Shown here piece by piece: positions 17,375 through 52,500 of a stretch of 64,000 bases of DNA. The stretch is taken from positions 322,427 through 386,426 of the forward strand of contig NZ_BAABRU010000004.1 in assembly GCF_039545135.1 (NCBI RefSeq), read 5' to 3'. Numbering within the stretch: position 1 is the first letter of the stretch; the number at the start of each line of letters is the position of its first letter. Under the pieces are notes generated by a model that was given only the letters and a program-made list of their open reading frames with translations, had not been told where the DNA came from and ran no database searches. The DNA is from Herpetosiphon gulosus (GTDB taxonomy: Bacteria; Chloroflexota; Chloroflexia; Chloroflexales; Herpetosiphonaceae). The translations under genes and the position numbers were made by a program.

Positions 17375-19156
17375 TTAACGAACTCCGGTCATCGCAAAGG
17401 GTAAAAAGCTAAAATACTGGGTTTGGGCAATCATGCCAGCCTCAAATGCTCCAATATCGCAACGCACTGTCTGATCGTTATTGCCATCGACAGGCCGTGG
17501 ATAGAGCCGTTGATCGACCAAGCCGCAATCGGCAGGCCCAGCATCAAGCGCCGGACTAGCAGCAGTCAAACTAAAACTGCGTGAACTGCCACCATGCAGC
17601 GCAAACTCACCAAGCAAGGGATCAAGATTCAGCAGATCGCTGGCTTGCTGATTGAGCAATTGACATTGGCTCGTCGGCTGCTCCAGTAAATTATGGCCTT
17701 GGCTAGTCAGGTTACCAAGACAATCGTTGGCAGTTTGGCTGAGTGTATGCCAATTATTGGCGATCATGCTATTGCTCAGTGCCAATGTGCCGCTGATTGA
17801 AACACCAGCCCCACCAATGCCCGTCGCAAAACGATTGGTATTTGAAACCACGGTCGAATTGGTCAGGGTCAAGACCGAGGTAACCCCGCGCTGATCCAAA
17901 GCTCCGCCCAAACCACGACTATCGTTGAAGGCCAGCGTGCTGGTATCGAGCAGCATCGTTCCAGCTTGTTGGCTAATCGCCGCACCTGAGGCATGGCAGT
18001 TTTCGCGCAACCTATTGACCCCATTGCTACGATTGGCGCTAAACTCGCTGCGATAAATTTCGCTGCTGCCATGGCTTTGCACGACCGCGCCACCTTGATC
18101 GGCATAATTATCAATAAAGCGTGAATCACTGATTAACACACGTCCAGCATTGGCGACTGCGCCACCACTAGCACAATAAAAATTACCAACCCCACCATTT
18201 TGAACAAACAGGCTGTTGATAATTTCGGCCTCAGCACCTTGATTAATTTTGACTGCGCGTGGCTGATTTTGCTGAAATTCGCTAGCTTCGATCAACGTCA
18301 TGCCTTTGATCGTATCGATGGCTGCGCCTTGCTCGCCTTGACCAATTGCCAAACGAATCTGGCTCTGGCTAAGCGTCAAATTGCCACCATCGTTGGCAAT
18401 CGCCATACCTGTGCCCGCCGTATCGGCCTCAAAAATTGTGTTAGCAATGTTGACCGTGCTTTGTTTGATGTAGAGACTGCCACCTATGCCAACGCCACCC
18501 ATAAAAATGGTGCGCACCTCGTTATCGTTGAAAAAGCTGTTTTGAATGTTGAGCGTGCCCACCAAACTGGCCACCCCACCACCATAATTGGCGAGACCAT
18601 ATAAAATTGGCGAAGTAATAATGCCATTGTGAATCACACGAACATGATTGAGGGTTAAATTACCGTTGCGTTGAAAAATACCATGCCCATAATAGGTTGC
18701 CGTATCATCATTATTCAAAATATAGCCGTTGCGAACTTCTACATGCTCTAAGGTCAATCGGCCTTCGTGCAGTTCCAACACGCGATCAGTCACGTTTCCA
18801 TCGATAATCGTGGTCGCTGAACTCACTCCCGTAATTTGCACCGATCCACGCAGATCCAAATCGCCAGTTAGGCCTTGATCGTCGTCACGGCCAGTTTTGG
18901 TTAGCCGATAGACTCCAGCGGGCAGCAAAATCTGATCAGCGCCAGCGCCAGCCGGGCAAGCATCCACCACTTGATCGCTGGTAGCGGCCAAAACTGCCTC
19001 GCGTAGTGAACACGTTTGGTTGCTGGGGTTAGTATCATCAACCGTCGTGGTAACTTGAATCTGATTGGTAGGGGTAGCATGGCTCGCTTGCGGCTGAGCA
19101 GAATACCAACTACTGCCTACTAGAAATGCTAGTAAACTCCAACGAAAAGACCTCAT
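17375..19156 (-). CDS. Secreted right-handed parallel beta-helix protein (choice-of-anchor-Q-like N-terminal module CSLREAV..A)
   Basis: Signal peptide MRSFRWSLLAFLVGSSWYSA (RBS GGAGGA upstream). CSLREAVLAATSD motif. Gly/Asn-rich beta-helix repeats. Confidence 0.65.
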   Translation of the reverse strand: MRSFRWSLLAFLVGSSWYSAQPQASHATPTNQIQVTTTVDDTNPSNQTCSLREAVLAATSDQVVDACPAGAGADQILLPAGVYRLTKTGRDDDQGLTGDLDLRGSVQITGVSSATTIIDGNVTDRVLELHEGRLTLEHVEVRNGYILNNDDTATYYGHGIFQRNGNLTLNHVRVIHNGIITSPILYGLANYGGGVASLVGTLNIQNSFFNDNEVRTIFMGGVGIGGSLYIKQSTVNIANTIFEADTAGTGMAIANDGGNLTLSQSQIRLAIGQGEQGAAIDTIKGMTLIEASEFQQNQPRAVKINQGAEAEIINSLFVQNGGVGNFYCASGGAVANAGRVLISDSRFIDNYADQGGAVVQSHGSSEIYRSEFSANRSNGVNRLRENCHASGAAISQQAGTMLLDTSTLAFNDSRGLGGALDQRGVTSVLTLTNSTVVSNTNRFATGIGGAGVSISGTLALSNSMIANNWHTLSQTANDCLGNLTSQGHNLLEQPTSQCQLLNQQASDLLNLDPLLGEFALHGGSSRSFSLTAASPALDAGPADCGLVDQRLYPRPVDGNNDQTVRCDIGAFEAGMIAQTQYFSFLPFAMTGVR

Positions 19157-19225
19157 TGTGGTTCCTCCAGGGGCAATAAACAATATCTGGCTATTGTAAA
19201 AGTCCACCTGAGGCTGTCAAGCATG

Positions 19226-20023
19226 CTAGAGTGCAGGTGCTGTTAGGTCATAAATTATTAAATGACGAATCTCTAAGGCCTGATTTGAATGAGAAAGTAT
19301 ACCACCACGTAAAAGTCCACGTGGCGAAACTTGGGCATATTGGTTGTCGAGCCATACAATTAAACCTAAATTGCTGGTTGGCAAGCTGGCGGTTTTGAGT
19401 ACCAATTGCTGATCAAGCCAAAATTCCACCCGATCAGCATACCAATCGATTTGATATTGCTGCCATGTATTCCAAGTGAGTTGGATTGGCTGGCTACGCA
19501 CGCCCAAAGCCAGTTGCACCAACGGCAAGCAACAGCGTTGGCGGAACCAAGTGTTTTGGCTCAGCACCAAGGCCAAGGGAGCCAGTGGCAACAAGCCCAA
19601 ACACCAGCCCAAGCGCGGTACAAAGCTCATCGCCAGCCAGCCGTTATTCGCGCCGTTGGCAGTTAATTCAAGTTGGCTAGCAGTGCTCGCATAGAAAAAC
19701 CATAATGCTTGAGGTAGCCGCAAACGCCGCAAGCCCGTGCCAGCCGGGTCATTCCACCAGCCAAAGCCTGCTGTACCCACAAAATCCTGAGGATCGCCAC
19801 AAAACCGCGCTTCGAGTTGCAAACGCACTGGAGCATGCCAGCCCAAGCCGTTTTCAACATAATCATCCAATTGCGCATCGCTGTAAACCATGCGATCATG
19901 CTGATGCAGGGCGAGCCGCACGCCAGCCTCAATTGGCTGAATTTCGGCCTGATTGGGTGTCCAAGCATGCCAGCGTCTCCCCCAAAACGAGCGAAAAGCC
20001 ATTAGGAGACTCCTATGTCGCAA
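19226..20023 (-). CDS. Hypothetical protein, possibly concanavalin-A-like lectin/glucanase fold
   Basis: The C-terminal segment YQIDWYADRVEFWLDQQLV...LGLIVWLDN resembles GH16/LamG beta-sandwich motifs. There is no signal peptide and the assignment is weak. Confidence 0.4.
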   Translation of the reverse strand: MRHRSLLMAFRSFWGRRWHAWTPNQAEIQPIEAGVRLALHQHDRMVYSDAQLDDYVENGLGWHAPVRLQLEARFCGDPQDFVGTAGFGWWNDPAGTGLRRLRLPQALWFFYASTASQLELTANGANNGWLAMSFVPRLGWCLGLLPLAPLALVLSQNTWFRQRCCLPLVQLALGVRSQPIQLTWNTWQQYQIDWYADRVEFWLDQQLVLKTASLPTSNLGLIVWLDNQYAQVSPRGLLRGGILSHSNQALEIRHLIIYDLTAPAL

Positions 20024-21392: not shown

Positions 21393-23300
21393 TTAGGGCA
21401 GCAGCCGTAGGCGCTGAATCGTGACGGTTTGCTGCTCAGCACCCGTTACGACTGGATCAAGTCGCAACATGCCGATTGGGCCTTGCCATGTTGCTATTTG
21501 GCTGAGATCAAGGGTGTAGGTATGCAGCGCTCCATCGCCAATCACATCCCATGAGACCGAATGATCTTCAGTTGCACCCTCGCCAGGAGCCATCCAATAC
21601 AGTTGACTATGTTGATTTGGCAGTGTGCTGGCCATGGTAATTTCAAGCTTGCGCCATTGGCTGCTCTCCAGATTAATCCGTGGGCTAAGCAAATGCGGGT
21701 CTTGCTGAGGGATAAATCTCCAGCCAGCGCCCCAAGTGCTGGCAGTAATAAAATTCTCGCGCCAGCCCAAACTCCAATGCTGCCAGTGCCAATCGGGCAA
21801 GCCTTGAGGAATCGGGTCGAGCTTGAGATAACTGGCATGGGTCAGGGTTATTGGCTGAGCTTGGGCTAAAAACGGGGCAAAACATGCGGCAACTGCTGAT
21901 TGCTCTAGCCCATAGCGTTCGAGCAAAATTGGGCTAGGCTCGATTGCCTGTTGATCAAGCCAAACCGTATAGCCAGCACTGGTGGTATCGACGATTTTGG
22001 CACTAATTTCCAAGCAACCATGCTGCCAATCGCCAGGGCTAACGCTGAGTGGTAGGCTGTTTGGGCGCTCAAATTCATATTCGGCATACAAGGCTTGCAA
22101 GCCATTCGGCACGAAATAAAAATCATTGGGCGTGCCAGTCTTGGCTAATTCAGTGATTATTCGGCGATCTTGATCGTTGGCAGCATCGCCATTGGCATAA
22201 ATTTGCCAGCCATTGCTTAAACTCATGCCAACCAAGGCCCAACTTAGGGCTGGCTGCCACCAACGGCGCTGCGGTAGATTGATCGTATGTAAACTAAGCG
22301 TGATCAATAAAGCCCACGGCGGCAAGCAAGCAATCCAAAATTCAATATTATCGGGTTCCCACCAGCCAAAAAATAGGCTATAACTGATAAGCCAGGTTGC
22401 AGCCAATACCACCAATGTTTGTGATTGTCGCCAAATCAAACGCCAACGCCAAGCGATTAAGCCACAGCTGGCTAGCAAAACCACGCCACCCATCCAAGCG
22501 TGGATCGTATGCTGCCAGCCGTTGAGCAAATTGGCAAAGGTGTTAGCATTAGTTGTGCCCCACAAACCAGTGTTGGCATATTCAAACAGCCACTGTTGCA
22601 CTTGTGGCCATGTGCGGAAGCCACTCAAGCCAAACATCACCACAGCATAGCTACCGCCAACTACTAGCAACCCAACCATGGCATAGTGCAAAAATGCCTG
22701 CCAGCGTTGTTTCCAAGCGGTAGTACCCCATGCAGCGCTCAGCCAAACCACCAGCACAGGCACAAGCCAGAGCACATTAGTTTGATGAAATAGAATTGCC
22801 GCGCTATGGGCTAGCCCAAGCCAGCGCCAATTGCTCAACGTTTGGGGCGTTTGAGCCAGTCGAAGCAACAAGCCAGTAGCGATAATTAAAAACAAGCCCG
22901 CCAAGGTATAGACCTCGACCTCAACTGCGTAATACCACCAAGCATAGGCTCCGCCAACCAACACACTGCCGCTAGTTGCCAGCCAAGGCTGGTTGGTCAA
23001 ACGCTGAAGCAAACGCCACCACATGATCACGCCGCTGGCTCCAGCCAGCACATTCAGCATTTGCAACGGCCCAAATGCCATGCCGTGATAGCCCAAACCT
23101 TGGCTGAGCCAATAGACAATCTCGCCAAGCGGCCCATAGAATAGATGATGAGGATGAAACGATTCGCGCCATGGCTTGGCTTGCACCGCCGTCGCGTAGG
23201 AGTAGGCATCGAAGGTATGAATTTGGGTGAGCGTCAGGCTATAAAGCATAACCAAACCCAGCCACGCCAAACCAAGCTTTAAACGAGAATGTTGCTGCAT
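21393..23300 (-). CDS. Polytopic membrane protein, putative GT-C-fold glycosyltransferase (ArnT/PMT-like) with C-terminal extracytoplasmic domain
   Basis: More than 10 predicted TM helices in the N-terminal 400 aa, with a soluble C-terminal ~230 aa. Probable start MQQHSRLK. Confidence 0.45.
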   Translation of the reverse strand: MQQHSRLKLGLAWLGLVMLYSLTLTQIHTFDAYSYATAVQAKPWRESFHPHHLFYGPLGEIVYWLSQGLGYHGMAFGPLQMLNVLAGASGVIMWWRLLQRLTNQPWLATSGSVLVGGAYAWWYYAVEVEVYTLAGLFLIIATGLLLRLAQTPQTLSNWRWLGLAHSAAILFHQTNVLWLVPVLVVWLSAAWGTTAWKQRWQAFLHYAMVGLLVVGGSYAVVMFGLSGFRTWPQVQQWLFEYANTGLWGTTNANTFANLLNGWQHTIHAWMGGVVLLASCGLIAWRWRLIWRQSQTLVVLAATWLISYSLFFGWWEPDNIEFWIACLPPWALLITLSLHTINLPQRRWWQPALSWALVGMSLSNGWQIYANGDAANDQDRRIITELAKTGTPNDFYFVPNGLQALYAEYEFERPNSLPLSVSPGDWQHGCLEISAKIVDTTSAGYTVWLDQQAIEPSPILLERYGLEQSAVAACFAPFLAQAQPITLTHASYLKLDPIPQGLPDWHWQHWSLGWRENFITASTWGAGWRFIPQQDPHLLSPRINLESSQWRKLEITMASTLPNQHSQLYWMAPGEGATEDHSVSWDVIGDGALHTYTLDLSQIATWQGPIGMLRLDPVVTGAEQQTVTIQRLRLLP

Positions 23301-23381: not shown

Positions 23382-25625
23382 TTATTTAGTTGTCCAAGGC
23401 AGATAGGTTTTTTGCAGTGGTGGAGTTACCACAACTGTGCCTTGCATATTACCATGCAAGCTACAAACATAGCTGAAGGTGCCAACTTGATCGAAGGTTA
23501 CTGCATAATCTTGGTTCTGGCTGAGGTTGCCTGAATCCCAAACGAACGGTGTTTGGCTGCGAGTTGTCGTGTGAGTTGAAGCATCAAGGTTACGCCACAA
23601 GATGCTCGTTCCCAAAGTAACCGTAATTGGGCTAGGGCTAAAGCGGAAGTTTTGAATATTGACGGTTTGGGTCGTCGCGAAATCAAAGTCTTGGATGATG
23701 GTCTGATTGAGCACTACGGTTACCGTTGCCACTTGGGTTTCCAAAGCCATAAATTCGCTAGAAATCGTAAAGGTTCCGGCTGGTAAATCCAAACTATAAT
23801 CGCCGTTAGCATCGGTTTCGGTTGTGAAATTGCCTGGGTTGGCAGTGATGCTTACGCCAGCGCGGCCAGTGCCATTGAGGGTTGCATTCCCGCTGACTGT
23901 ACCACCACCAAATTCAAAGTCTTCAGTGGCAACTTGACCTTTGACAATCGTTACTTGGCGGGTCATTGGCGTTTCATTTGGCACCGTCACGGTTGCGGTG
24001 TAGAGGCCTGCTGGCAAGCTGGTGCTATAAACCCCAGTGGTTTTGCCGAATTCAACTACACCAACGCTATTTTCCAAGCGAATGGTTGCTGAGGTTGCCG
24101 CCGTGCCATCAACCGTGATGCTGCCTTGCAAGGTTGGGGCAATGGCAGTCAAAGCATTAACATAGCCATGGCCAAAGGTGTTGTTAGGAATGCTTGTGCC
24201 AGCAACGCCACCACAGGTTTGGGTTGAAGGCGCTGGGGTAGCGGTTTCTTGCAAGATTGCGCGAGTTAGATCAACTTGGCCTTGTAGTTCTGGGCGAGCC
24301 GACCATAACAAGGCCACGACCCCAACCACGTGTGGGCTAGCCATACTCGTGCCTGAGCTTGAACCATAGGTACTATCACTACCATTGGTTGCCGAGCGAA
24401 CGCTCGAACCAGGCGCAGAAATATCTGGGCCAATCCGGCTAGCACCATTATTGGTAGCAGGACCGCGGCTGCTAAACCCAGAAATTGCGCCACTTGAGGT
24501 ATGTGAGCCAACCACAAAGCTTTCAGGGTAGATCGCGACTGGCGTGGTGATAGTAGCACAGCTGCTACCATCATTCCCAGCTGAAGCCACAAACATAATC
24601 CCAGCATTGGTCACATTTTGAACTGAAGTTTGAATCCCGTCAGAAGGCGTATTGGTACAACCTTCTGTGTCTGGACAACCCCACGAGTTGTTGACAACGT
24701 GTGGTGCTTTGCTGGGGTCGCCTTGAGCACTAGTGCCAGCAGCGGGGAATGGAGCCAGCATCCAGTCGATACAGCGAATGTAGGTTGCAGGCGTACCATT
24801 GCCAGCATCCATGTTACGGCAGGCGATCCATTTTGCGCCAGGTGCAACCCCAATTTGTTCGCCTGTGCCGTTATCGCCCACAACCGTACCAACGGTGTGA
24901 GTTCCATGCGAGTTATCATCACAAGGTGCATTGATCGCAATCCCACAGGGGTTGCTGCCACCTAACGAGGTGCGAATGCCGTCGTACCAGTTGTAATCGT
25001 GGCTAGCATTTGCGCCATCCCAGCCGCGATATTTATTCTTCAATGCAGCGTGAGTCCAGCGCACGCCAGTATCTTCGCCTGCAATCACAATCCCTTGGCC
25101 AGTAATGCCTTTAGCCCAAACTTGAGGCGCTTTCACATAATCAACACCCCATGTCGTGGTATTGACTGTTTGTGGTGCTGGATTGGTTTCGGCAACTGGT
25201 TTTTCGACCTTGACCACAATCGAATCTTCAATCAATTGCTTAACACTGGCTTGCTCGGCCAGCCATTGAGCACTAGCTAAATCAAGTGTCGCATACAAGG
25301 CATTAACCGAGAGAAAGCCCTCTGATCGAATACCACGGTTGCTAAGTTCGGCGAGCAACGGGGTTTGATCGCGTTGGGCTTGTTGACGAAGGGCAGCAAC
25401 GACTGCCGCACCTTTGGCTTCTTTGCTTGCCAAACGATCAGCAAAGTTGGTATCGACTTGGGCTTGCAATAGCACCAACGTTGGTACTTGTTGGCCTGCA
25501 TTCAGCTTTGCCAGCAGGGCTGAATCGGCTTTGCTCGCGAGGCGGTCGGGGGTGTTGGCGGAGGCGCTTGGCAGACAAAAAGCTGCCAACACCATCAGGA
25601 GGATGAATGGTTTGATCAGACGCAT
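23382..25625 (-). CDS. Secreted subtilisin-like serine protease (S8) with beta-sandwich (CarbopepD_reg-like) domains and a C-terminal cupredoxin-like domain
   Basis: Signal peptide MRLIKPFILLMVLAAFCLPSASA. Catalytic triad motifs GEDTGVRWTHAAL (D), HGTHTVGT (H), GTSMASPHVVG (S). C-terminus ...ASTHTTT...YVCSLHGNMQGTVVV resembles type-1 copper ligand spacing (H..C..H..M). Confidence 0.85.
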   Translation of the reverse strand: MRLIKPFILLMVLAAFCLPSASANTPDRLASKADSALLAKLNAGQQVPTLVLLQAQVDTNFADRLASKEAKGAAVVAALRQQAQRDQTPLLAELSNRGIRSEGFLSVNALYATLDLASAQWLAEQASVKQLIEDSIVVKVEKPVAETNPAPQTVNTTTWGVDYVKAPQVWAKGITGQGIVIAGEDTGVRWTHAALKNKYRGWDGANASHDYNWYDGIRTSLGGSNPCGIAINAPCDDNSHGTHTVGTVVGDNGTGEQIGVAPGAKWIACRNMDAGNGTPATYIRCIDWMLAPFPAAGTSAQGDPSKAPHVVNNSWGCPDTEGCTNTPSDGIQTSVQNVTNAGIMFVASAGNDGSSCATITTPVAIYPESFVVGSHTSSGAISGFSSRGPATNNGASRIGPDISAPGSSVRSATNGSDSTYGSSSGTSMASPHVVGVVALLWSARPELQGQVDLTRAILQETATPAPSTQTCGGVAGTSIPNNTFGHGYVNALTAIAPTLQGSITVDGTAATSATIRLENSVGVVEFGKTTGVYSTSLPAGLYTATVTVPNETPMTRQVTIVKGQVATEDFEFGGGTVSGNATLNGTGRAGVSITANPGNFTTETDANGDYSLDLPAGTFTISSEFMALETQVATVTVVLNQTIIQDFDFATTQTVNIQNFRFSPSPITVTLGTSILWRNLDASTHTTTRSQTPFVWDSGNLSQNQDYAVTFDQVGTFSYVCSLHGNMQGTVVVTPPLQKTYLPWTTK

Positions 25626-25712
25626 AGGCTCCCCACACAGGTAAAAGATATTAAGGTTGAAGGCAAGTATAGCAAACTTTTGGGCATGGTAAAATAGCAT
25701 GATGCTGATAGA

Positions 25713-26726
25713 TTGCCCAATACGCTGAAATGGAAAACTATGGAAGATTTTTTGCGCCGAGCAGCGGCGGATTTACATATTGGGGTTGAACAAACCAGCC
25801 CAACCACTTGGACGCTGACGATCCCCGGGAGTTTGGCGCGGGTTTTTGGCAAAGAAACGGTTTTGGTAACAACCGATAAGCAGGTGGCGGCGCTCGATCC
25901 TGATCTTCAATTACTTTCGCCGAACTCATCGTTAACCTTGCGCTTAGCCGAGCAACTGCGCTCACGTGGGCGGCCAACCCATCGCGCTCGCTTGGAATGG
26001 TATCCCGATCAAGCATCATTGCTGGCCGATGTGCAGGAAGCTCAATTAATTCAAGGCCCAAGCTTGCAACTGAGCGGGTTGCAACAACATATTGTATTGC
26101 GAATTACCTTTCGCATTCGCTTTGAACGCGAGGTGATTGAGGAAAAAATGGTGGCCTGTTGTGTCGATTATGAAACTGGCCAAGTTTGGCCAACGATCAC
26201 CGACATCACCAATTTGCGCGATCAACTCACGCCGTTGCCCTCAACTGGCCTAACCGATGAGCATGTGAATGTGGCATTGCACCATGCCCGCCGCTGGCTT
26301 GAGCGCTTGCTCTACCCGCAAAAAGCGCTGCACGAAGCCCAACTGGCCCAACTACTGGCAGTCGAAAAAGCGCGGATCAACGCCTTTTACGATGCGCTCG
26401 AAGAAGATTCGGGCCTAGCACTGGGAGCCAAAGAGGGCGAATCCAACAAGCAATATGCCCTCGAAGAAGAACGTAAACGCCTACTCGATGAGCAAGAATA
26501 TCGTTATGCCTTATCGTTGGCAGCCGAAACTGTCAGCGTAGCAACAATTCAAACGCCAGTGCTGCATATTGGCAGCAAACAACAACCACATTTAATTGCG
26601 ATCTCGCCCTTATTCGAGCCGATGATTCAATTGCCCCATTGCCAAACCTGTGGCCGCCAAGCCAGTTTGGTACAGCATAAAGAGCAATTGGTTTGCAATG
26701 TTTGCCATCAGGTGCTAGCACAATAA
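25713..26726 (+). CDS. Hypothetical protein with C-terminal CxxC...CxxC zinc-ribbon
   Basis: 337-aa ORF with no recognisable family. C-terminus LPHCQTCGRQ...LVCNVCHQV. The start may be the internal M at 25740. Confidence 0.5.
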   Translation: MPNTLKWKTMEDFLRRAAADLHIGVEQTSPTTWTLTIPGSLARVFGKETVLVTTDKQVAALDPDLQLLSPNSSLTLRLAEQLRSRGRPTHRARLEWYPDQASLLADVQEAQLIQGPSLQLSGLQQHIVLRITFRIRFEREVIEEKMVACCVDYETGQVWPTITDITNLRDQLTPLPSTGLTDEHVNVALHHARRWLERLLYPQKALHEAQLAQLLAVEKARINAFYDALEEDSGLALGAKEGESNKQYALEEERKRLLDEQEYRYALSLAAETVSVATIQTPVLHIGSKQQPHLIAISPLFEPMIQLPHCQTCGRQASLVQHKEQLVCNVCHQVLAQ

Positions 26727-44124: not shown

Positions 44125-45543
44125 CTACTTGCCCACACTTGGCAAAAAGATATTGGTAATCGGAGTCCAGCTACGGGTTTCAGCGAGCGCATTCGTGCCA
44201 TTCCAGCCACCAATGCTATAAATATCACGGGCGTTTGAAAGCACGAGGTGTTCGCTGACAGCATGGCCGGTGCGCAAATCGGTTGCATTCCAGATGTTAT
44301 TTTGCAGCACCAAAATCGCTTGATCGCCCTCAGCCCCACCCACCAAATAGATCTGATTGGTGATATAAACCGCGCCAGCATCGATCCGTGGGGCTGGCAG
44401 ATCGGTTAACTTTTGCCATGTGCCAGTTTGCAAACGCCAGGTTCCAAGGCTGGGGCCAGTTGAAGTTTGGCCGCCAATCAACACAACATCGCCGCCACTT
44501 TGGGCAATGGCTGCATCACGCAAGGGCAATGGAATGGTTGGGCCTTGGCTCCAGCTTTGGGTATCAGGGCTATAAATAAAGCTGGTATCAGCAATGATCC
44601 CCTCGTTCTCACCGCCAAACACATAAACTTTGCCATCGATCGCGGCAATCATGGCATTGGCCCGTGGGGCAGGCATGGCTGGGCCAGTTTGCCAACGATT
44701 TTGGGCCAAGTCAAAAATCTCTAAAATAGTGCTAGCAGCGCCATTTTTATCGCGGCCACCTGGCACATAAATTTGGCCAGCAATCTGCACTGCGCCGCTG
44801 GAGGCAACTGCGGTTGGCTTGGCAGCCAGCTCACGCCACGCCCCCGTCGCCAAATTCAATTGACGGGTATGCGCCACCACGCCAGTATCGGTGTTGCCGC
44901 CAATCACAATCAAACTATCGGCTAGGAAAACCCCAGCATGTTGGTAGGTTGGCTCGGGCAGCGCGGTCAGTGGTTGCCACACATTGCTCACAAGCGTTGT
45001 TGCCGGTTGGGTGGTTGGCGTAATGTTGCCGCGCACCACAAACCAGCCAATTGCCACCACTGCCACAATCAACCCAAATAGCACACCCAAAATTGCCAAA
45101 GCATAGGCTCGTGGAATTGTGATCTGATTGGTGGGTTGGGTGATCACTGGCGTAATCGGATCGGGCGCTGGGGTTGTGATTGGCTGAGTTGTACTAGTTA
45201 TTTGAATTGGTTCGGGTACAATCGGCTCATCAATTGGAATAATCACTGGCGATTCGCTCTCAGGAATGCTCTCAGGTTCTGGCACTGGATTTGGAGTATT
45301 CAAACCCTCGATCAGGCCGCGCCGCACAGCCTCAAGCGTCGCCTCAGCCCGTGATAACACCCCCAACTTGGCGTAGATATTGCGAATATGCACCTTGACT
45401 GTGTTGGGGCTGATAACCAGCGTATTGGCAATTTCGTTATTGCTTGCCCCCAGCGCTAGCTGACGCAAGACCTCGATTTCACGCTCGCTGAGTGGTGATT
45501 GATCAGACATATTCCTCAATTCCTGAGCCAATTCTCCATCCAT
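44125..45543 (-). CDS. Transmembrane one-component regulator: N-terminal LuxR-type HTH, Pro-rich linker, single TM, extracytoplasmic Kelch-repeat beta-propeller
   Basis: [45 protein letters not shown] is a LuxR/Ger[31 protein letters not shown]. Repeated Kelch-like blades ...YV.GG. Confidence 0.65.
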
Positions 45544-45648
45544 TGCATGGTAGCTGAACGCCGCAGCAAAGTCAAAGGTTTAATCAACAATCAGGGGTAG
45601 AATGCGGCCTAGGCTCATTCCTACCCCTGATTAAATCAGGCTAAATTG

Positions 45649-48391: not shown

Positions 48392-50254
48392 CTACGGTGT
48401 GACGTTATAGCTGTAATCGGCTGCCTCGGTTGTGCCTTGAGTTGTAGCATTGACCACCAAAACCGCTCGTCGATTAGCCGGAATCAGCCAACGCGCTTGA
48501 CCATTATCGGTTGGAATTGCGACAACTTCAGCAACCCCAGCTTGATCATACAGCACTGCCGTTAGCACCCAACGCTGCGCCAGTTGATTACGCACTGGCA
48601 CAAAACCAGCCCCGCTCCATTCAGCCATTACATTGTCGATTGTGAGATTGCTCAAGGCTAAACCAGCAGCATTATACGCTTCATCGTTAATAACCCAAAA
48701 TCGCAATTGAATTTGTTGACCAGCCCATGGCCCAAGATCGATGCTTTCTGCTTGCCACGCGGTTTGTTGGCCTGTCCAGCCAGCCCCAATATTTAAGCCA
48801 ACCGGATTGGCTCCAGTGCTGGCTTGAGTCGCAATCGCTTGCCAGGTTTGGCCATTATCTTGCGAGAGGCTGAGATAGGCATAATCGTAATCTTGCTCTA
48901 AATCAAACCAGCGTTGATAGCTCAGGCTACTGCCAGCGCTGGGCACTTGAATTGCTGTGGTGAGCGTGCTCACTCGCGCATCGCCGCGCCCGCCCCACCA
49001 TGTGGCGCTACTTGTCACATCGGCGGCGAAAATAGGCACTGTGGTATTGCCCTGCCATTCAACAGTTCGTTCGCTGCTGGCGCTATCAAAAGCCAAATAA
49101 TCGCTGCCAAATTGCTGAATGCTCAAGTTTTGCTCGCTGCTCTGGGCTGGCTCTGGCAACACAGCCCGAGGCAAATCGTAGCTATAACGGCCATCGGCGA
49201 GATCAGGATCATTCACCAAATTGGCGACCGCCCAAGCTGCAAACAGCTGATCAAAGCTGGTCAAATCGGGGTAGCGGGTAGCCATCAAACTCGTAATGCT
49301 GGTCAAATTATCGCCAGCATCAGCAGCAGCCAAGGTTCCCATCGGCAAGCCGTCGAGTTGCTGATCGAGATAACCGAGGAAAAGCTGAGCCGCACCATAA
49401 TGTTTGAGCGCAGTGCCAGGGCTGCTGGCCCACGCATTGAGTTGGGTATCCGGCGAGGCCAGAAAATCGAGTGCCAAACTATCGTTGCCATAGCCTGAAC
49501 GATTTTCGCTCAACATCGAAGCGCCTTCATTGAGCCAAGTGGCGGGGTGGCTCAGCACATTCCGATGCAACAGATGCTGCATTTCGTGAATTAACGTGGC
49601 GACATAGCCAAAATCGCTGGGTGGCATGGCCGCAGCGTTAATCACCAACATCTCGCGTTCGTTGGAATATGGATTGATCGCTTGGGGCAATTCGTTATCG
49701 CTGGCGTAATAGCCGCCCGCCCCGTTGACCGCAGCATTCAAGACCGTTACCGGCACTTGAGGCCAAGCCTGTTGCGGATACCATTTGGCTAGCAACGGCC
49801 AACCAACCTGTTCAAATTGCTGAGCAGCATTAATCAGCGCTTGTTGATCAACTGGCAAATCATCGGCCACATAAATTAATAGGTGAGTGGTACTAAGTTG
49901 AAGGGTGGCACTGATATTGCGCTGTTGATTGCTAGTTAAATCGGTAACCCAAAAGCTGCGGCGCTCGTATGGTGGGGGCATTTCCAAACGTAGTGGTTGA
50001 GGTTTTTCGCTAAGCAAGCGCCAATCAACGGCAAGTTGGGCCAAATCGCGCTCAAGCCCTTGTTGGCTGGCAAGTTCCACCGCCGCTTCATCGGCAATGA
50101 TTGGGATGCTTGTGGCCAGTGCTTGAGTCGGGCTGAGAGTTTGAGCTAGGGTTGGCAAGCTTGGTTGAATTGGAATTTGGGTGCTGGTTGCAGGTGCGGT
50201 TGCGCTACAACCCACCAACATCCACAGCAAAAGGCAGATTCGCCAGCGACGCAT
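48392..50254 (-). CDS. Secreted lipoprotein, putative zinc metallopeptidase (HExxH...E gluzincin-like)
   Basis: Lipobox signal MRRWRICLLLWMLVGC. HEMQHLLHRN...NEG motif. Confidence 0.55.
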   Translation of the reverse strand: MRRWRICLLLWMLVGCSATAPATSTQIPIQPSLPTLAQTLSPTQALATSIPIIADEAAVELASQQGLERDLAQLAVDWRLLSEKPQPLRLEMPPPYERRSFWVTDLTSNQQRNISATLQLSTTHLLIYVADDLPVDQQALINAAQQFEQVGWPLLAKWYPQQAWPQVPVTVLNAAVNGAGGYYASDNELPQAINPYSNEREMLVINAAAMPPSDFGYVATLIHEMQHLLHRNVLSHPATWLNEGASMLSENRSGYGNDSLALDFLASPDTQLNAWASSPGTALKHYGAAQLFLGYLDQQLDGLPMGTLAAADAGDNLTSITSLMATRYPDLTSFDQLFAAWAVANLVNDPDLADGRYSYDLPRAVLPEPAQSSEQNLSIQQFGSDYLAFDSASSERTVEWQGNTTVPIFAADVTSSATWWGGRGDARVSTLTTAIQVPSAGSSLSYQRWFDLEQDYDYAYLSLSQDNGQTWQAIATQASTGANPVGLNIGAGWTGQQTAWQAESIDLGPWAGQQIQLRFWVINDEAYNAAGLALSNLTIDNVMAEWSGAGFVPVRNQLAQRWVLTAVLYDQAGVAEVVAIPTDNGQARWLIPANRRAVLVVNATTQGTTEAADYSYNVTP

Positions 50255-51269: not shown

Positions 51270-51384
51270 GCCAATTTGAAACCTTTTGGCCAACGCTCCG
51301 TCTTTACGGCGGAGTGTTGGCGTTTTAGCCAGCAAATTGCGGTACGATGATAGTGAGCGATTTTTGATCAACGGAGGCTGCTGT

Positions 51385-52500
51385 ATGCGCTATTGGTTGT
51401 TGCTTCTCGGGCTGGTGTTGTTGAGTGGTTGTGTGAGTCAGCAACAACAAACTGAATTTAATTCCGATGCCAGCGGTGTTTATGAAATTCGACTAGGTTT
51501 TTCGCAACAGTTTCTCGATTTTGCCGAGATGGGCGGAAGCGGCGCAAGCACCGATGTGCTCGATGATGCCCTCAGCGAATTAGGCTCAATCGCCGATTTA
51601 CTGCCTGCTGAATGGCAAGCCAGCAACGAAAATTGGACCAGTGAAGATGGTCAGTATCGGGGCACGTTAATTCGCATGCAATTTCGCGATTTGGCGATGC
51701 TCAAAGAGCAATTGACCAGCAGCGAATTAAACGAACTCTATAGTTTGGTGCGTTTTGAGGATGTGGCAATTGAGCAAAACGGCAATGAAGTTCAGCTCAA
51801 GGCAACTGTCAAAAACGGTCAAAGTTCAATGTTGGGCAGCCAAGAATCAGGCGAGCTGTTTGGCTCCGGCTTGATTGCTAGCCCCACCACCAGCTGGACA
51901 ATTCGCTTTCCTGAATCAATTAGCACTTGGAACGAGCGCGAAATTGCCACGCTCAACGAAGCACAAACCAGCATCACCTATGATTTTCCCTATCCTTTGA
52001 GCCGCGATTATCAGCTTGAAATTGTGGGTACGTTGAGTGCTGGCGTGCCGCAATGGGCTTTGTGGGGCGTTGGCGGTTTGGTTGGAGTTGGGTTGCTGTT
52101 GGTAGGCGTTGGCTTTATCTTGAGCCGCCGCAAACCCAGCACCCAGCCGTATGATTTAGTGCCTGCTGGCCCAAGCAGCGATTACCCAGCCTATCAAACT
52201 GGTAGTCAAACCACTCCATTAGCAGCATCAAGCTATCAACCCAAGCCTGAAAGCTACCAACCAAGCGATAGCGTTGCAGCCTATCAACCCAAACCTGAGA
52301 GCTACCAGCCAAGTGATAGCATTTCGCCGTATGCACCAAAACCAACAGGTTATCAAGCGCCAACACCCTCAGCTCAAGCCAGCAACAGCTACGAACAGCC
52401 AACCACATTTGGCTCAGCCCCAACAGAATTTGGTGGCCGCACGCCAACCCGTTCACTGGGCAGTTGGCAAGAGTCTAACGATGATCCTCAAAGCCGATAG
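51385..52500 (+). CDS. Lipoprotein with C-terminal TM anchor and YQPKPESYQPSDS-repeat tail (paralog 2)
   Basis: Lipobox LVLLSGC. RBS ACGGAGG. TM ALWGVGGLVGVGLLLVGVGFIL. 48-bp tandem DNA repeat at 52235-52330. Confidence 0.6.
   Translation: MRYWLLLLGLVLLSGCVSQQQQTEFNSDASGVYEIRLGFSQQFLDFAEMGGSGASTDVLDDALSELGSIADLLPAEWQASNENWTSEDGQYRGTLIRMQFRDLAMLKEQLTSSELNELYSLVRFEDVAIEQNGNEVQLKATVKNGQSSMLGSQESGELFGSGLIASPTTSWTIRFPESISTWNEREIATLNEAQTSITYDFPYPLSRDYQLEIVGTLSAGVPQWALWGVGGLVGVGLLLVGVGFILSRRKPSTQPYDLVPAGPSSDYPAYQTGSQTTPLAASSYQPKPESYQPSDSVAAYQPKPESYQPSDSISPYAPKPTGYQAPTPSAQASNSYEQPTTFGSAPTEFGGRTPTRSLGSWQESNDDPQSR

Follow-up and report, generated by a model that had tools for sequence, protein, structure and literature searches.

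Within a 64,000-nt stretch of the Herpetosiphon gulosus genome (contig NZ_BAABRU010000004.1, positions 322,427 to 386,426; here called the window, with positions counted from its first nucleotide), a minus-strand open reading frame (ORF) encodes a 747-residue pre-pro-subtilase that ends in a predicted type-1 copper domain of the cupredoxin fold (Table 1). The gene sits in an ordinary chromosomal region of ~50% G+C. It runs from an ATG at 25625 (MRLIKPF...) to a stop codon at 23382-23384, while a second in-frame ATG lies further 5', at 25700. The start at 25625 is favoured because GGGAG is found 3 nt upstream of it, a Sec signal peptide opens there and the orthologues agree, with three of the four closest homologues using this start.

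The signal peptide, for which the cleavage site was placed by the AxA rule, is followed by a pro-region. A full-length AlphaFold2 (AF2) model computed from a 9-row alignment had a predicted local distance difference test score (pLDDT) of 52, at which interdomain contacts are not readable. In this model the pro-region shows a beta-alpha-beta-beta-alpha-beta order at pLDDT 55-80, with an alpha/beta unit predicted at moderate confidence at residues ~45-133. From residue 128 onward the protease aligns partially to the Tk-subtilisin precursor, and its Pfam scan gave no I9 propeptide match. Judged from the predicted structure, the pro-region is probably an intramolecular chaperone/inhibitor propeptide.

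The catalytic domain has subtilisin matches in the PDB (best 1e-23). D185 (in DTG), H240 (HGTH), S427 (GTSMA), N351 and the eight cysteines of the S8 domain are invariant columns of a 9-sequence alignment. Read from these motifs, the S8 active site is intact, with the triad in the order Asp-His-Ser, which places the enzyme in subtilase family S8; the eight conserved cysteines are consistent with an extracytoplasmic enzyme. Two all-beta regions follow. Homologues have PF13620/PF13715 matches in the region of the first, and the second has a CarbopepD_reg_2 match at residues 587-649 (27.7 bits, under the Pfam cut-off of 32.2).

Table 1. Features of the protease gene and its flanks, in window positions. 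dN/dS, ratio of non-synonymous to synonymous substitution rates.
Feature	Position	Strand	dN/dS	Basis
Whole gene, 747-aa pre-pro-subtilase with C-terminal cupredoxin	23382..25625	-		ORF list, start-codon context, full-length orthologues at 87-94% identity
Sec-type signal peptide, residues 1-23 (MRLIKPFILLMVLAAFCLPSASA, then N; predicted cleavage between ASA and N)	25557..25625	-		Read from the sequence; kept in orthologues
N-terminal pro-region, residues ~24-150, predicted alpha/beta	25176..25556	-		Full-length AF2 secondary structure
Peptidase S8 catalytic domain, Pfam residues 176-487	24165..25100	-	0.079	PF00082, E 3e-40; invariant motifs; PDB matches
S8 triad D185, H240, S427; oxyanion N351	25071-25073, 24906-24908, 24345-24347; 24573-24575	-		Codons checked
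Beta-sandwich 1, residues 497-572, CarboxypepD_reg-like	23910..24137	-	0.114	All-beta, pLDDT 75-85
Beta-sandwich 2, residues 575-649	23679..23903	-	0.107	CarbopepD_reg_2 below threshold; all-beta, pLDDT ~80-87
Cupredoxin (type-1 copper) module, ~85 aa, residues 650-735	23421..23678	-	0.093	Two Pfam models, ligand alignment, AF2, Foldseek
Predicted copper ligands H685, C721, H724, M727	23571-23573, 23463-23465, 23454-23456, 23445-23447	-		Aligned with amicyanin and 9cck
Extreme C-terminal tail YLPWTTK, candidate retention/sorting signal	23385..23405	-		Motif [YFW][LFIM]P[LWFIMV]xx[KR]
Divergent intergenic/leader region	25626..25739	.		Sigma-70-like TTTACC-N16-TATACT and ribosome-binding site (GGGAG)
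Co-oriented downstream gene, 635-aa polytopic membrane protein with C-terminal soluble domain	21393..23300	-		Synteny with the protease
Divergently transcribed gene, 337-aa (or ~328-aa) protein, C-terminal CxxC...CxxC	25713..26726	+		Conserved neighbourhood

Identity of the C-terminal domain

A preliminary description of this gene, made from its letters alone, had proposed an S8 domain and beta-sandwich domains followed by a C-terminal cupredoxin with plastocyanin/azurin-like ligand spacing. The S8 domain and the two CarboxypepD_reg-like all-beta regions of Table 1 agree with the first part of that proposal, and both ligand strings that it quoted are present, with H685 in STHTT and C721, H724 and M727 in YVCSLHGNMQGTVVV. 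The cupredoxin assignment itself is borne out by profile searches, alignment to solved proteins and a fold match to amicyanin. Two Pfam hidden Markov models (HMMs) match above their gathering cut-offs: Cupredoxin_1 (PF13473) over residues 650-733, with 34.7 bits (cut-off 27), and Copper-bind (PF00127) over residues 653-733, with 29.1 bits (cut-off 21.2). NCBIfam gave weak matches to its amicyanin, halocyanin and plastocyanin models, all far under the equivalog cut-offs. When the last 112 residues were compared with PDB sequences by phmmer, the C-terminal cupredoxin of 9cck was matched at 9e-10 and amicyanins at ~3e-7. H685 aligns on the upstream histidine ligand of these proteins, and C721, H724 and M727 align on the ligand loop of amicyanin (CTPHPFM) and of 9cck (CTLHPWM).

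Structure prediction for the module was based on an alignment of 75 modules, and the resulting AF2 model (pLDDT 90.1, predicted template modelling score 0.79) has seven strands, with C721 just after the penultimate strand (76-81 in module numbering) and M727 just before the last (89-95). Foldseek ranked amicyanins first among PDB structures, with probability 1.00, E ~5e-8, template modelling (TM) scores of 0.70-0.73 and a root mean square deviation of 1.4-2.1 A over ~85 columns. After the amicyanins came the tethered cupredoxins of NirK (6hbe) and Nmar_1354 (9cck), pseudoazurins and plastocyanins. The top PDB fold matches listed were all cupredoxin-fold proteins or domains, with TM scores up to 0.74, and the model does not bear out a non-cupredoxin beta-sandwich.

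Conservation within the module is concentrated on the predicted copper site. The 75 modules are, orthologues aside, only 32-44% identical to the window module, and no column of their alignment is invariant except those of the four ligands. The C-x2-H-x2-M spacing is retained in 245 of 315 near-full-length modules of relatives. C721 is also the only cysteine in the C-terminal 275 residues, that is, the only one outside the signal peptide and the S8 domain. The bare C-x2-H-x2-M motif is not significant alone: the six-frame ORFs of the window contain 8 matches to a looser pattern, C-x(2-4)-H-x(2-4)-M. The above-chance evidence for a cupredoxin is that of the HMM and PDB sequence statistics, the fold and the conservation.

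By alignment and model, then, the last globular domain is a cupredoxin of the plastocyanin/amicyanin type with a complete predicted set of type-1 ligands. From the superposition on amicyanin and the in-register alignment, we infer that the ligands cluster in three dimensions, and homology to 9CCK and amicyanin suggests that the domain would bind one copper ion.

Conservation, spread and origin of the fusion

The same fused gene was found in H. aurantiacus DSM 785, H. llansteffanensis, H. giganteus, H. geysericola and one Chloroflexia metagenome-assembled genome (MAG) when one genome per species was scanned with the single window module as query. The nearest protein to the window protease, from a Herpetosiphon MAG, is 94% identical, and the cupredoxin module is 92% identical to its counterpart in H. 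aurantiacus DSM 785. A gene-fusion artefact was ruled out by the presence of the same ORF in six genomes, including a complete one. The dN/dS values in Table 1 were calculated by the Nei-Gojobori method over six orthologues, across which the four ligands are unchanged. Since the value for the cupredoxin (0.093) is close to that for the catalytic domain (0.079), selection preserves the module no less strongly than the enzyme. In the first set of homologues, every S8-cupredoxin protein retains the ligands, including the more distant P0004 (54% overall identity) and P0017 (44%).

To place the fusion among subtilases, 234 close S8 homologues, collected with the window protein and P0017 as starting points, were scanned with the module profile, and a cupredoxin module was found in 11 of them (~5%). 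The fusions fall into groups of different architecture. In Herpetosiphon the order is S8, two sandwiches, cupredoxin and tail; P0004 has one sandwich; P0017 and P0314/P0320/P0321/P0323 have S8, cupredoxin and an SLH anchor; and P0299 carries the module with a P-domain. Ligands are intact in 9 of the 11 S8-linked modules, the remaining two being P0314, with an axial Met-to-Ile change, and the frameshifted P0075. Other S8 relatives bear many alternative C-terminal modules.

An exhaustive HMMER search of 1.84 billion representative sequences returned 24,937 relatives of the module at E <= 1e-3. The top relatives contain 2-12 tandem cupredoxin copies per protein, with C-x2-H-x2-M in nearly every repeat, and the closest modules sit in envelope-anchored surface proteins that have SLH domains or type IX secretion system (T9SS) tails. 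None of the top 150 poly-cupredoxin proteins has an S8 domain. This poly-cupredoxin family (P0122-P0271) is itself worth recording: its members are extracytoplasmic and have 2-12 tandem amicyanin-like modules. An SLH or T9SS tail is present in some of them, and some are longer than 3,000 aa. Our literature search found nothing on the function of poly-cupredoxin surface proteins.

The S8-linked modules were then compared all against all with 683 poly-cupredoxin modules. For the Herpetosiphon, P0299 and P0314-type groups, the nearest neighbours outside the group are poly-cupredoxin modules and not other S8-linked ones, and the Herpetosiphon and SLH-type groups rank each other only ~300th-550th. 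The P0004 and P0017 modules are close matches of each other. For so short a domain this is not proof, and the module comparison is suggestive of repeated recruitment to S8 proteases in at least three Chloroflexia groups.

A closely related protease shows what the same position can hold instead. P0005 (749 aa, 52-55% identical to the window protease) has three CarboxypepD_reg-type sandwiches and no cupredoxin. Its flanks match those of the window gene: on one side a divergent gene encodes a ~325-aa protein, with 65% identity, and on the other a co-oriented gene encodes a ~640-aa membrane protein, with 50% identity. Because the same two neighbours flank both genes, we regard P0005 as a positional orthologue with a different terminal module. 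An ordinary CarboxypepD_reg-type sandwich thus takes the place of the cupredoxin, which points to interchangeable accessory modules and not to a dedicated redox-protease design. The same three-gene neighbourhood is present in a Herpetosiphon MAG. The membrane-protein and divergent genes therefore travel with the protease and not with the cupredoxin; neither of the two proteins has a Pfam, NCBIfam or PDB match.

The fusion is real, conserved in the four named Herpetosiphon species examined and rare among subtilases. The preliminary description had called the architecture unusual, which stands in so far as the fusion is uncommon (11/234) and our literature search (subtilase with cupredoxin, Herpetosiphon proteases, Chloroflexi cupredoxin surface proteins) found no description of it. 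The term is too strong in that the fusion recurs in at least three Chloroflexia groups, can be replaced, and already exists in public genomes, including that of H. aurantiacus DSM 785, under automatic names only ('Peptidase S8 and S53...', 'plastocyanin').

C-terminal tail, upstream region and other genes of the window

The cupredoxin is followed by a 12-residue stretch that ends in YLPWTTK, and this heptapeptide is invariant in the six Herpetosiphon orthologues. The tail motif, followed by 0-2 residues (as in YLPWTTK, YLPLVLR, FMPLLRR and FLPLVWR), ends 15 of 120 S8 homologues irrespective of the preceding domain. Carriers besides the window protein are P0004, P0005, P0007, P0008, P0010-P0012, P0022, P0035, P0051, P0102 and P0110, and those with names belong to Herpetosiphon, Herpetosiphonaceae and Thermoflexales. 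The motif occurs in 0 of 114 SLH-anchored S8 proteins and 0 of 150 poly-cupredoxin proteins. No NCBIfam sorting-signal model matched the tail, and an LPXTG sortase signal was ruled out, since neither a transmembrane segment nor a basic tail is present and the motif takes the form LPLVLR or MPLLRR in homologues. The tail may be an undescribed retention or sorting signal of the Chloroflexota. A loosely similar C-terminus, IFLPSVGK, was seen in the window ORF at 44125-45579 (minus strand), which has an N-terminal LuxR-type helix-turn-helix and Kelch/mutarotase-like repeats; this likeness is probably coincidental.

Upstream of the gene, six Herpetosiphon genomes show 95% identity over the 150 nt 5' of the protease start (25626-25775, reaching into the divergent gene), as against a within-gene dS of 0.5-0.9. 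An Rfam search of this conserved region found no family and no known riboswitch. The stretch probably serves as a divergent promoter or leader under tight constraint.

To characterise the surroundings, 40 of the 47 large window ORFs were scanned with Pfam together with the protease. The genes of the window include those for sugar ABC transport, a GH31 enzyme, LepA, CinA, a TetR regulator, dehydrogenases, a Tex protein, kinases and ion transporters. The scanned ORFs contained no multicopper oxidase, nitrite reductase, amine dehydrogenase, cytochrome or copper-homeostasis gene, and a local copper or redox operon was ruled out on this basis; none of the genes close to the protease points to a redox partner.

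Several other ORFs were noted in passing. A 620-aa ORF at 48392-50254 (minus strand) has an Immune inhibitor A-like MAM domain (PF20773, E 2.8e-20) as its sole Pfam match and no peptidase domain recognised by Pfam; it may be another secreted protease-related protein. The plus-strand ORF at 31269-32696 encodes a 475-aa MVP-like protein, with SPFH/Band 7 above its Pfam cut-off, the Major Vault Protein (MVP) shoulder domain PF11978 at 28 bits (cut-off 25) and a weak Vault repeat match. Four ORFs of 265-649 aa, at 17375-19207 and 19226-20023 on the minus strand and at 52-2001 and 51286-52500 on the plus strand, matched no Pfam family at the thresholds used.

Role of the cupredoxin and comparison with known systems

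With a rough probability of 0.6, we favour the reading that shuffling brought a type-1 copper domain to a secreted or surface protease as an accessory module close to the envelope, and that this domain is not coupled to proteolysis. The protein would be a Sec-exported pre-pro-subtilase in which the intact S8 site is followed by a modular stalk of two sandwiches and then the cupredoxin. The latter may have been gained by domain shuffling from the pool of poly-cupredoxin surface proteins, replacing a third plain beta-sandwich, and could serve as a copper-stabilised spacer or docking unit beside the YLPWTTK retention tail, with proteolysis and the copper site chemically uncoupled. An envelope-proximal role is suggested because the cupredoxin precedes only the tail (in the Herpetosiphon group and P0004) or lies between S8 and the C-terminal SLH region (in SLH-type fusions such as P0017 and P0323). 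Catalytic coupling is judged unlikely because serine-protease chemistry needs no electrons and because a donor or acceptor domain is not present.

Several points weigh against this reading. A pure structural spacer would not be expected to need four invariant ligands at a dN/dS of ~0.09, and recurrent independent fusions may mean that a specific function linked to copper or redox chemistry was selected for. The role of the tail in surface retention is conjecture, for which no partner, sorting enzyme or anchor has been identified. Finally, the full-length model (pLDDT 52) is too poor to judge contact between the cupredoxin and the catalytic domain.

A rival reading is a redox-active surface module, in which the tethered copper centre, like the extra cupredoxins of NirK or 2dMCO enzymes, carries electrons and trades them with other surface cupredoxins or oxidases, and in which the protease shares the location of this redox network or is gated by it. 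We hold this to be unlikely. The ligand set is intact and strongly constrained, the closest solved relatives by sequence and fold include cupredoxins that are tethered to copper enzymes and transfer electrons (9cck, 6hbe), surface proteins of related organisms hold up to 12 tandem modules with the ligands kept, and S8 fusions appear to have arisen more than once. However, the polypeptide has no redox catalytic domain and its serine-protease chemistry has no need of electrons, no copper or redox gene is present in the scanned window ORFs or the conserved three-gene neighbourhood, and the positional orthologue P0005 manages without a cupredoxin. Quite unlikely in our view is the broader proposal that proteases of Herpetosiphon and related Chloroflexia connect to an extracellular cupredoxin network or are gated by it, that proteolysis is thereby under redox or copper control during predation or envelope remodelling, and that the repeated fusions were selected for such coupling.

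Copper might alternatively act as a switch: loading of the terminal domain would determine how the protease folds, processes itself, is released or remains stable, so that the enzyme responds to extracellular copper. Apo-cupredoxins are far less stable than their holo forms, and conservation of the ligands would fit such control. A precedent exists in metal-loaded C-terminal domains that stabilise subtilases: Tk-SP (3afg, among the S8 matches in the PDB) is stabilised by its Ca2+-binding beta-jelly-roll domain. We nevertheless consider a copper switch quite doubtful, given that no copper-responsive regulator or homeostasis gene lies nearby among the scanned window ORFs, that the conserved upstream region holds only promoter-like elements and no known riboswitch, and that the orthologue with a plain sandwich implies a protease that works without the cupredoxin.

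Least probable of all is a metal-free beta-sandwich that binds substrate or cell wall and in which the cupredoxin signature is merely ancestral: the module does fill the slot of a CarboxypepD_reg sandwich in P0005, some Cupredoxin_1 members (B. anthracis 4hcf/4hcg) were crystallised with Cu or Zn, and P0314 has lost its axial methionine to isoleucine, but axial Met-to-Ile/Leu variants are still copper sites in known proteins, the module is under purifying selection equal to that acting on the catalytic domain, 9CCK, which is its nearest solved homologue in sequence, is metalated, and the strict conservation of the four ligands over 75 modules in which almost all else varies disfavours a loss of copper.

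Present evidence thus best explains the fusion by ordinary module shuffling among surface proteins and not by a new enzyme mechanism, and by itself the fusion opens no long-standing question. If copper is bound, as conservation implies, this would be the first known subtilase with a redox-metal accessory domain; we know of no other. With its single module, the protein would also be a tractable starting point for work on poly-cupredoxin surface proteins, a class that is unstudied and very large (~25,000 representatives).

Those poly-cupredoxin proteins contain the nearest relatives of the module (49-54% identity), have its ligand loop in nearly all repeats and are extracytoplasmic, with anchors in the envelope; they differ from the window protease in lacking a protease domain (0/150) and a YLPxxx[KR] tail. 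Among characterised proteins, amicyanin (Paracoccus; 1aac, 1id2, 2gb2) shares the fold of the module, the short C-x2-H-x2-M loop and the upstream histidine in register. It is ~25% identical to the module, which scores 34.2 bits against the TIGR02657 equivalog cut-off of 110.2 and has a threonine after the first histidine (HT.T) where amicyanin has an asparagine. Orthology to amicyanin was ruled out by this score, far under the cut-off, and by the lack of methylamine dehydrogenase (mau) genes in the window. Moreover, amicyanin is a free periplasmic carrier, whereas the window module is a domain of a 747-aa protease.

In its tethering the module is closer to the two-domain multicopper oxidase Nmar_1354 (9CCK), its best PDB sequence match (9e-10), with which it shares the HTVT...C-T-L-H-P-x-M signature and in which a pendant type-1 copper module likewise forms the C-terminus of a larger extracytoplasmic enzyme. 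This 'dangling' cupredoxin is metalated, with His2Cys and axial Met coordination, and lies 13.5 A from the copper catalytic centre to which it passes electrons (PMC11761707). NirK of Thermus scotoductus (6HBE) has a tethered cupredoxin too, but its partner is a copper redox enzyme, whereas here it is a serine hydrolase. No redox catalytic partner was found by Pfam or NCBIfam in the chain of the window protease, the other domains being S8 and the two CarboxypepD_reg-like sandwiches, and the protease contains no second set of copper ligands.

On the side of the proteases, no characterised S8 peptidase with a type-1 copper module was found in the literature. The overall plan of signal peptide, propeptide, S8 domain and swapped beta-sandwich modules is that of Tk-SP (3afg), deseasin MCP-01 (3vv3) and the S8 proteins with CarboxypepD_reg, SLH, T9SS or DUF11 tails. 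Unlike those subtilases, the window protease has as its terminal module a predicted metal-redox fold with a complete set of type-1 ligands.

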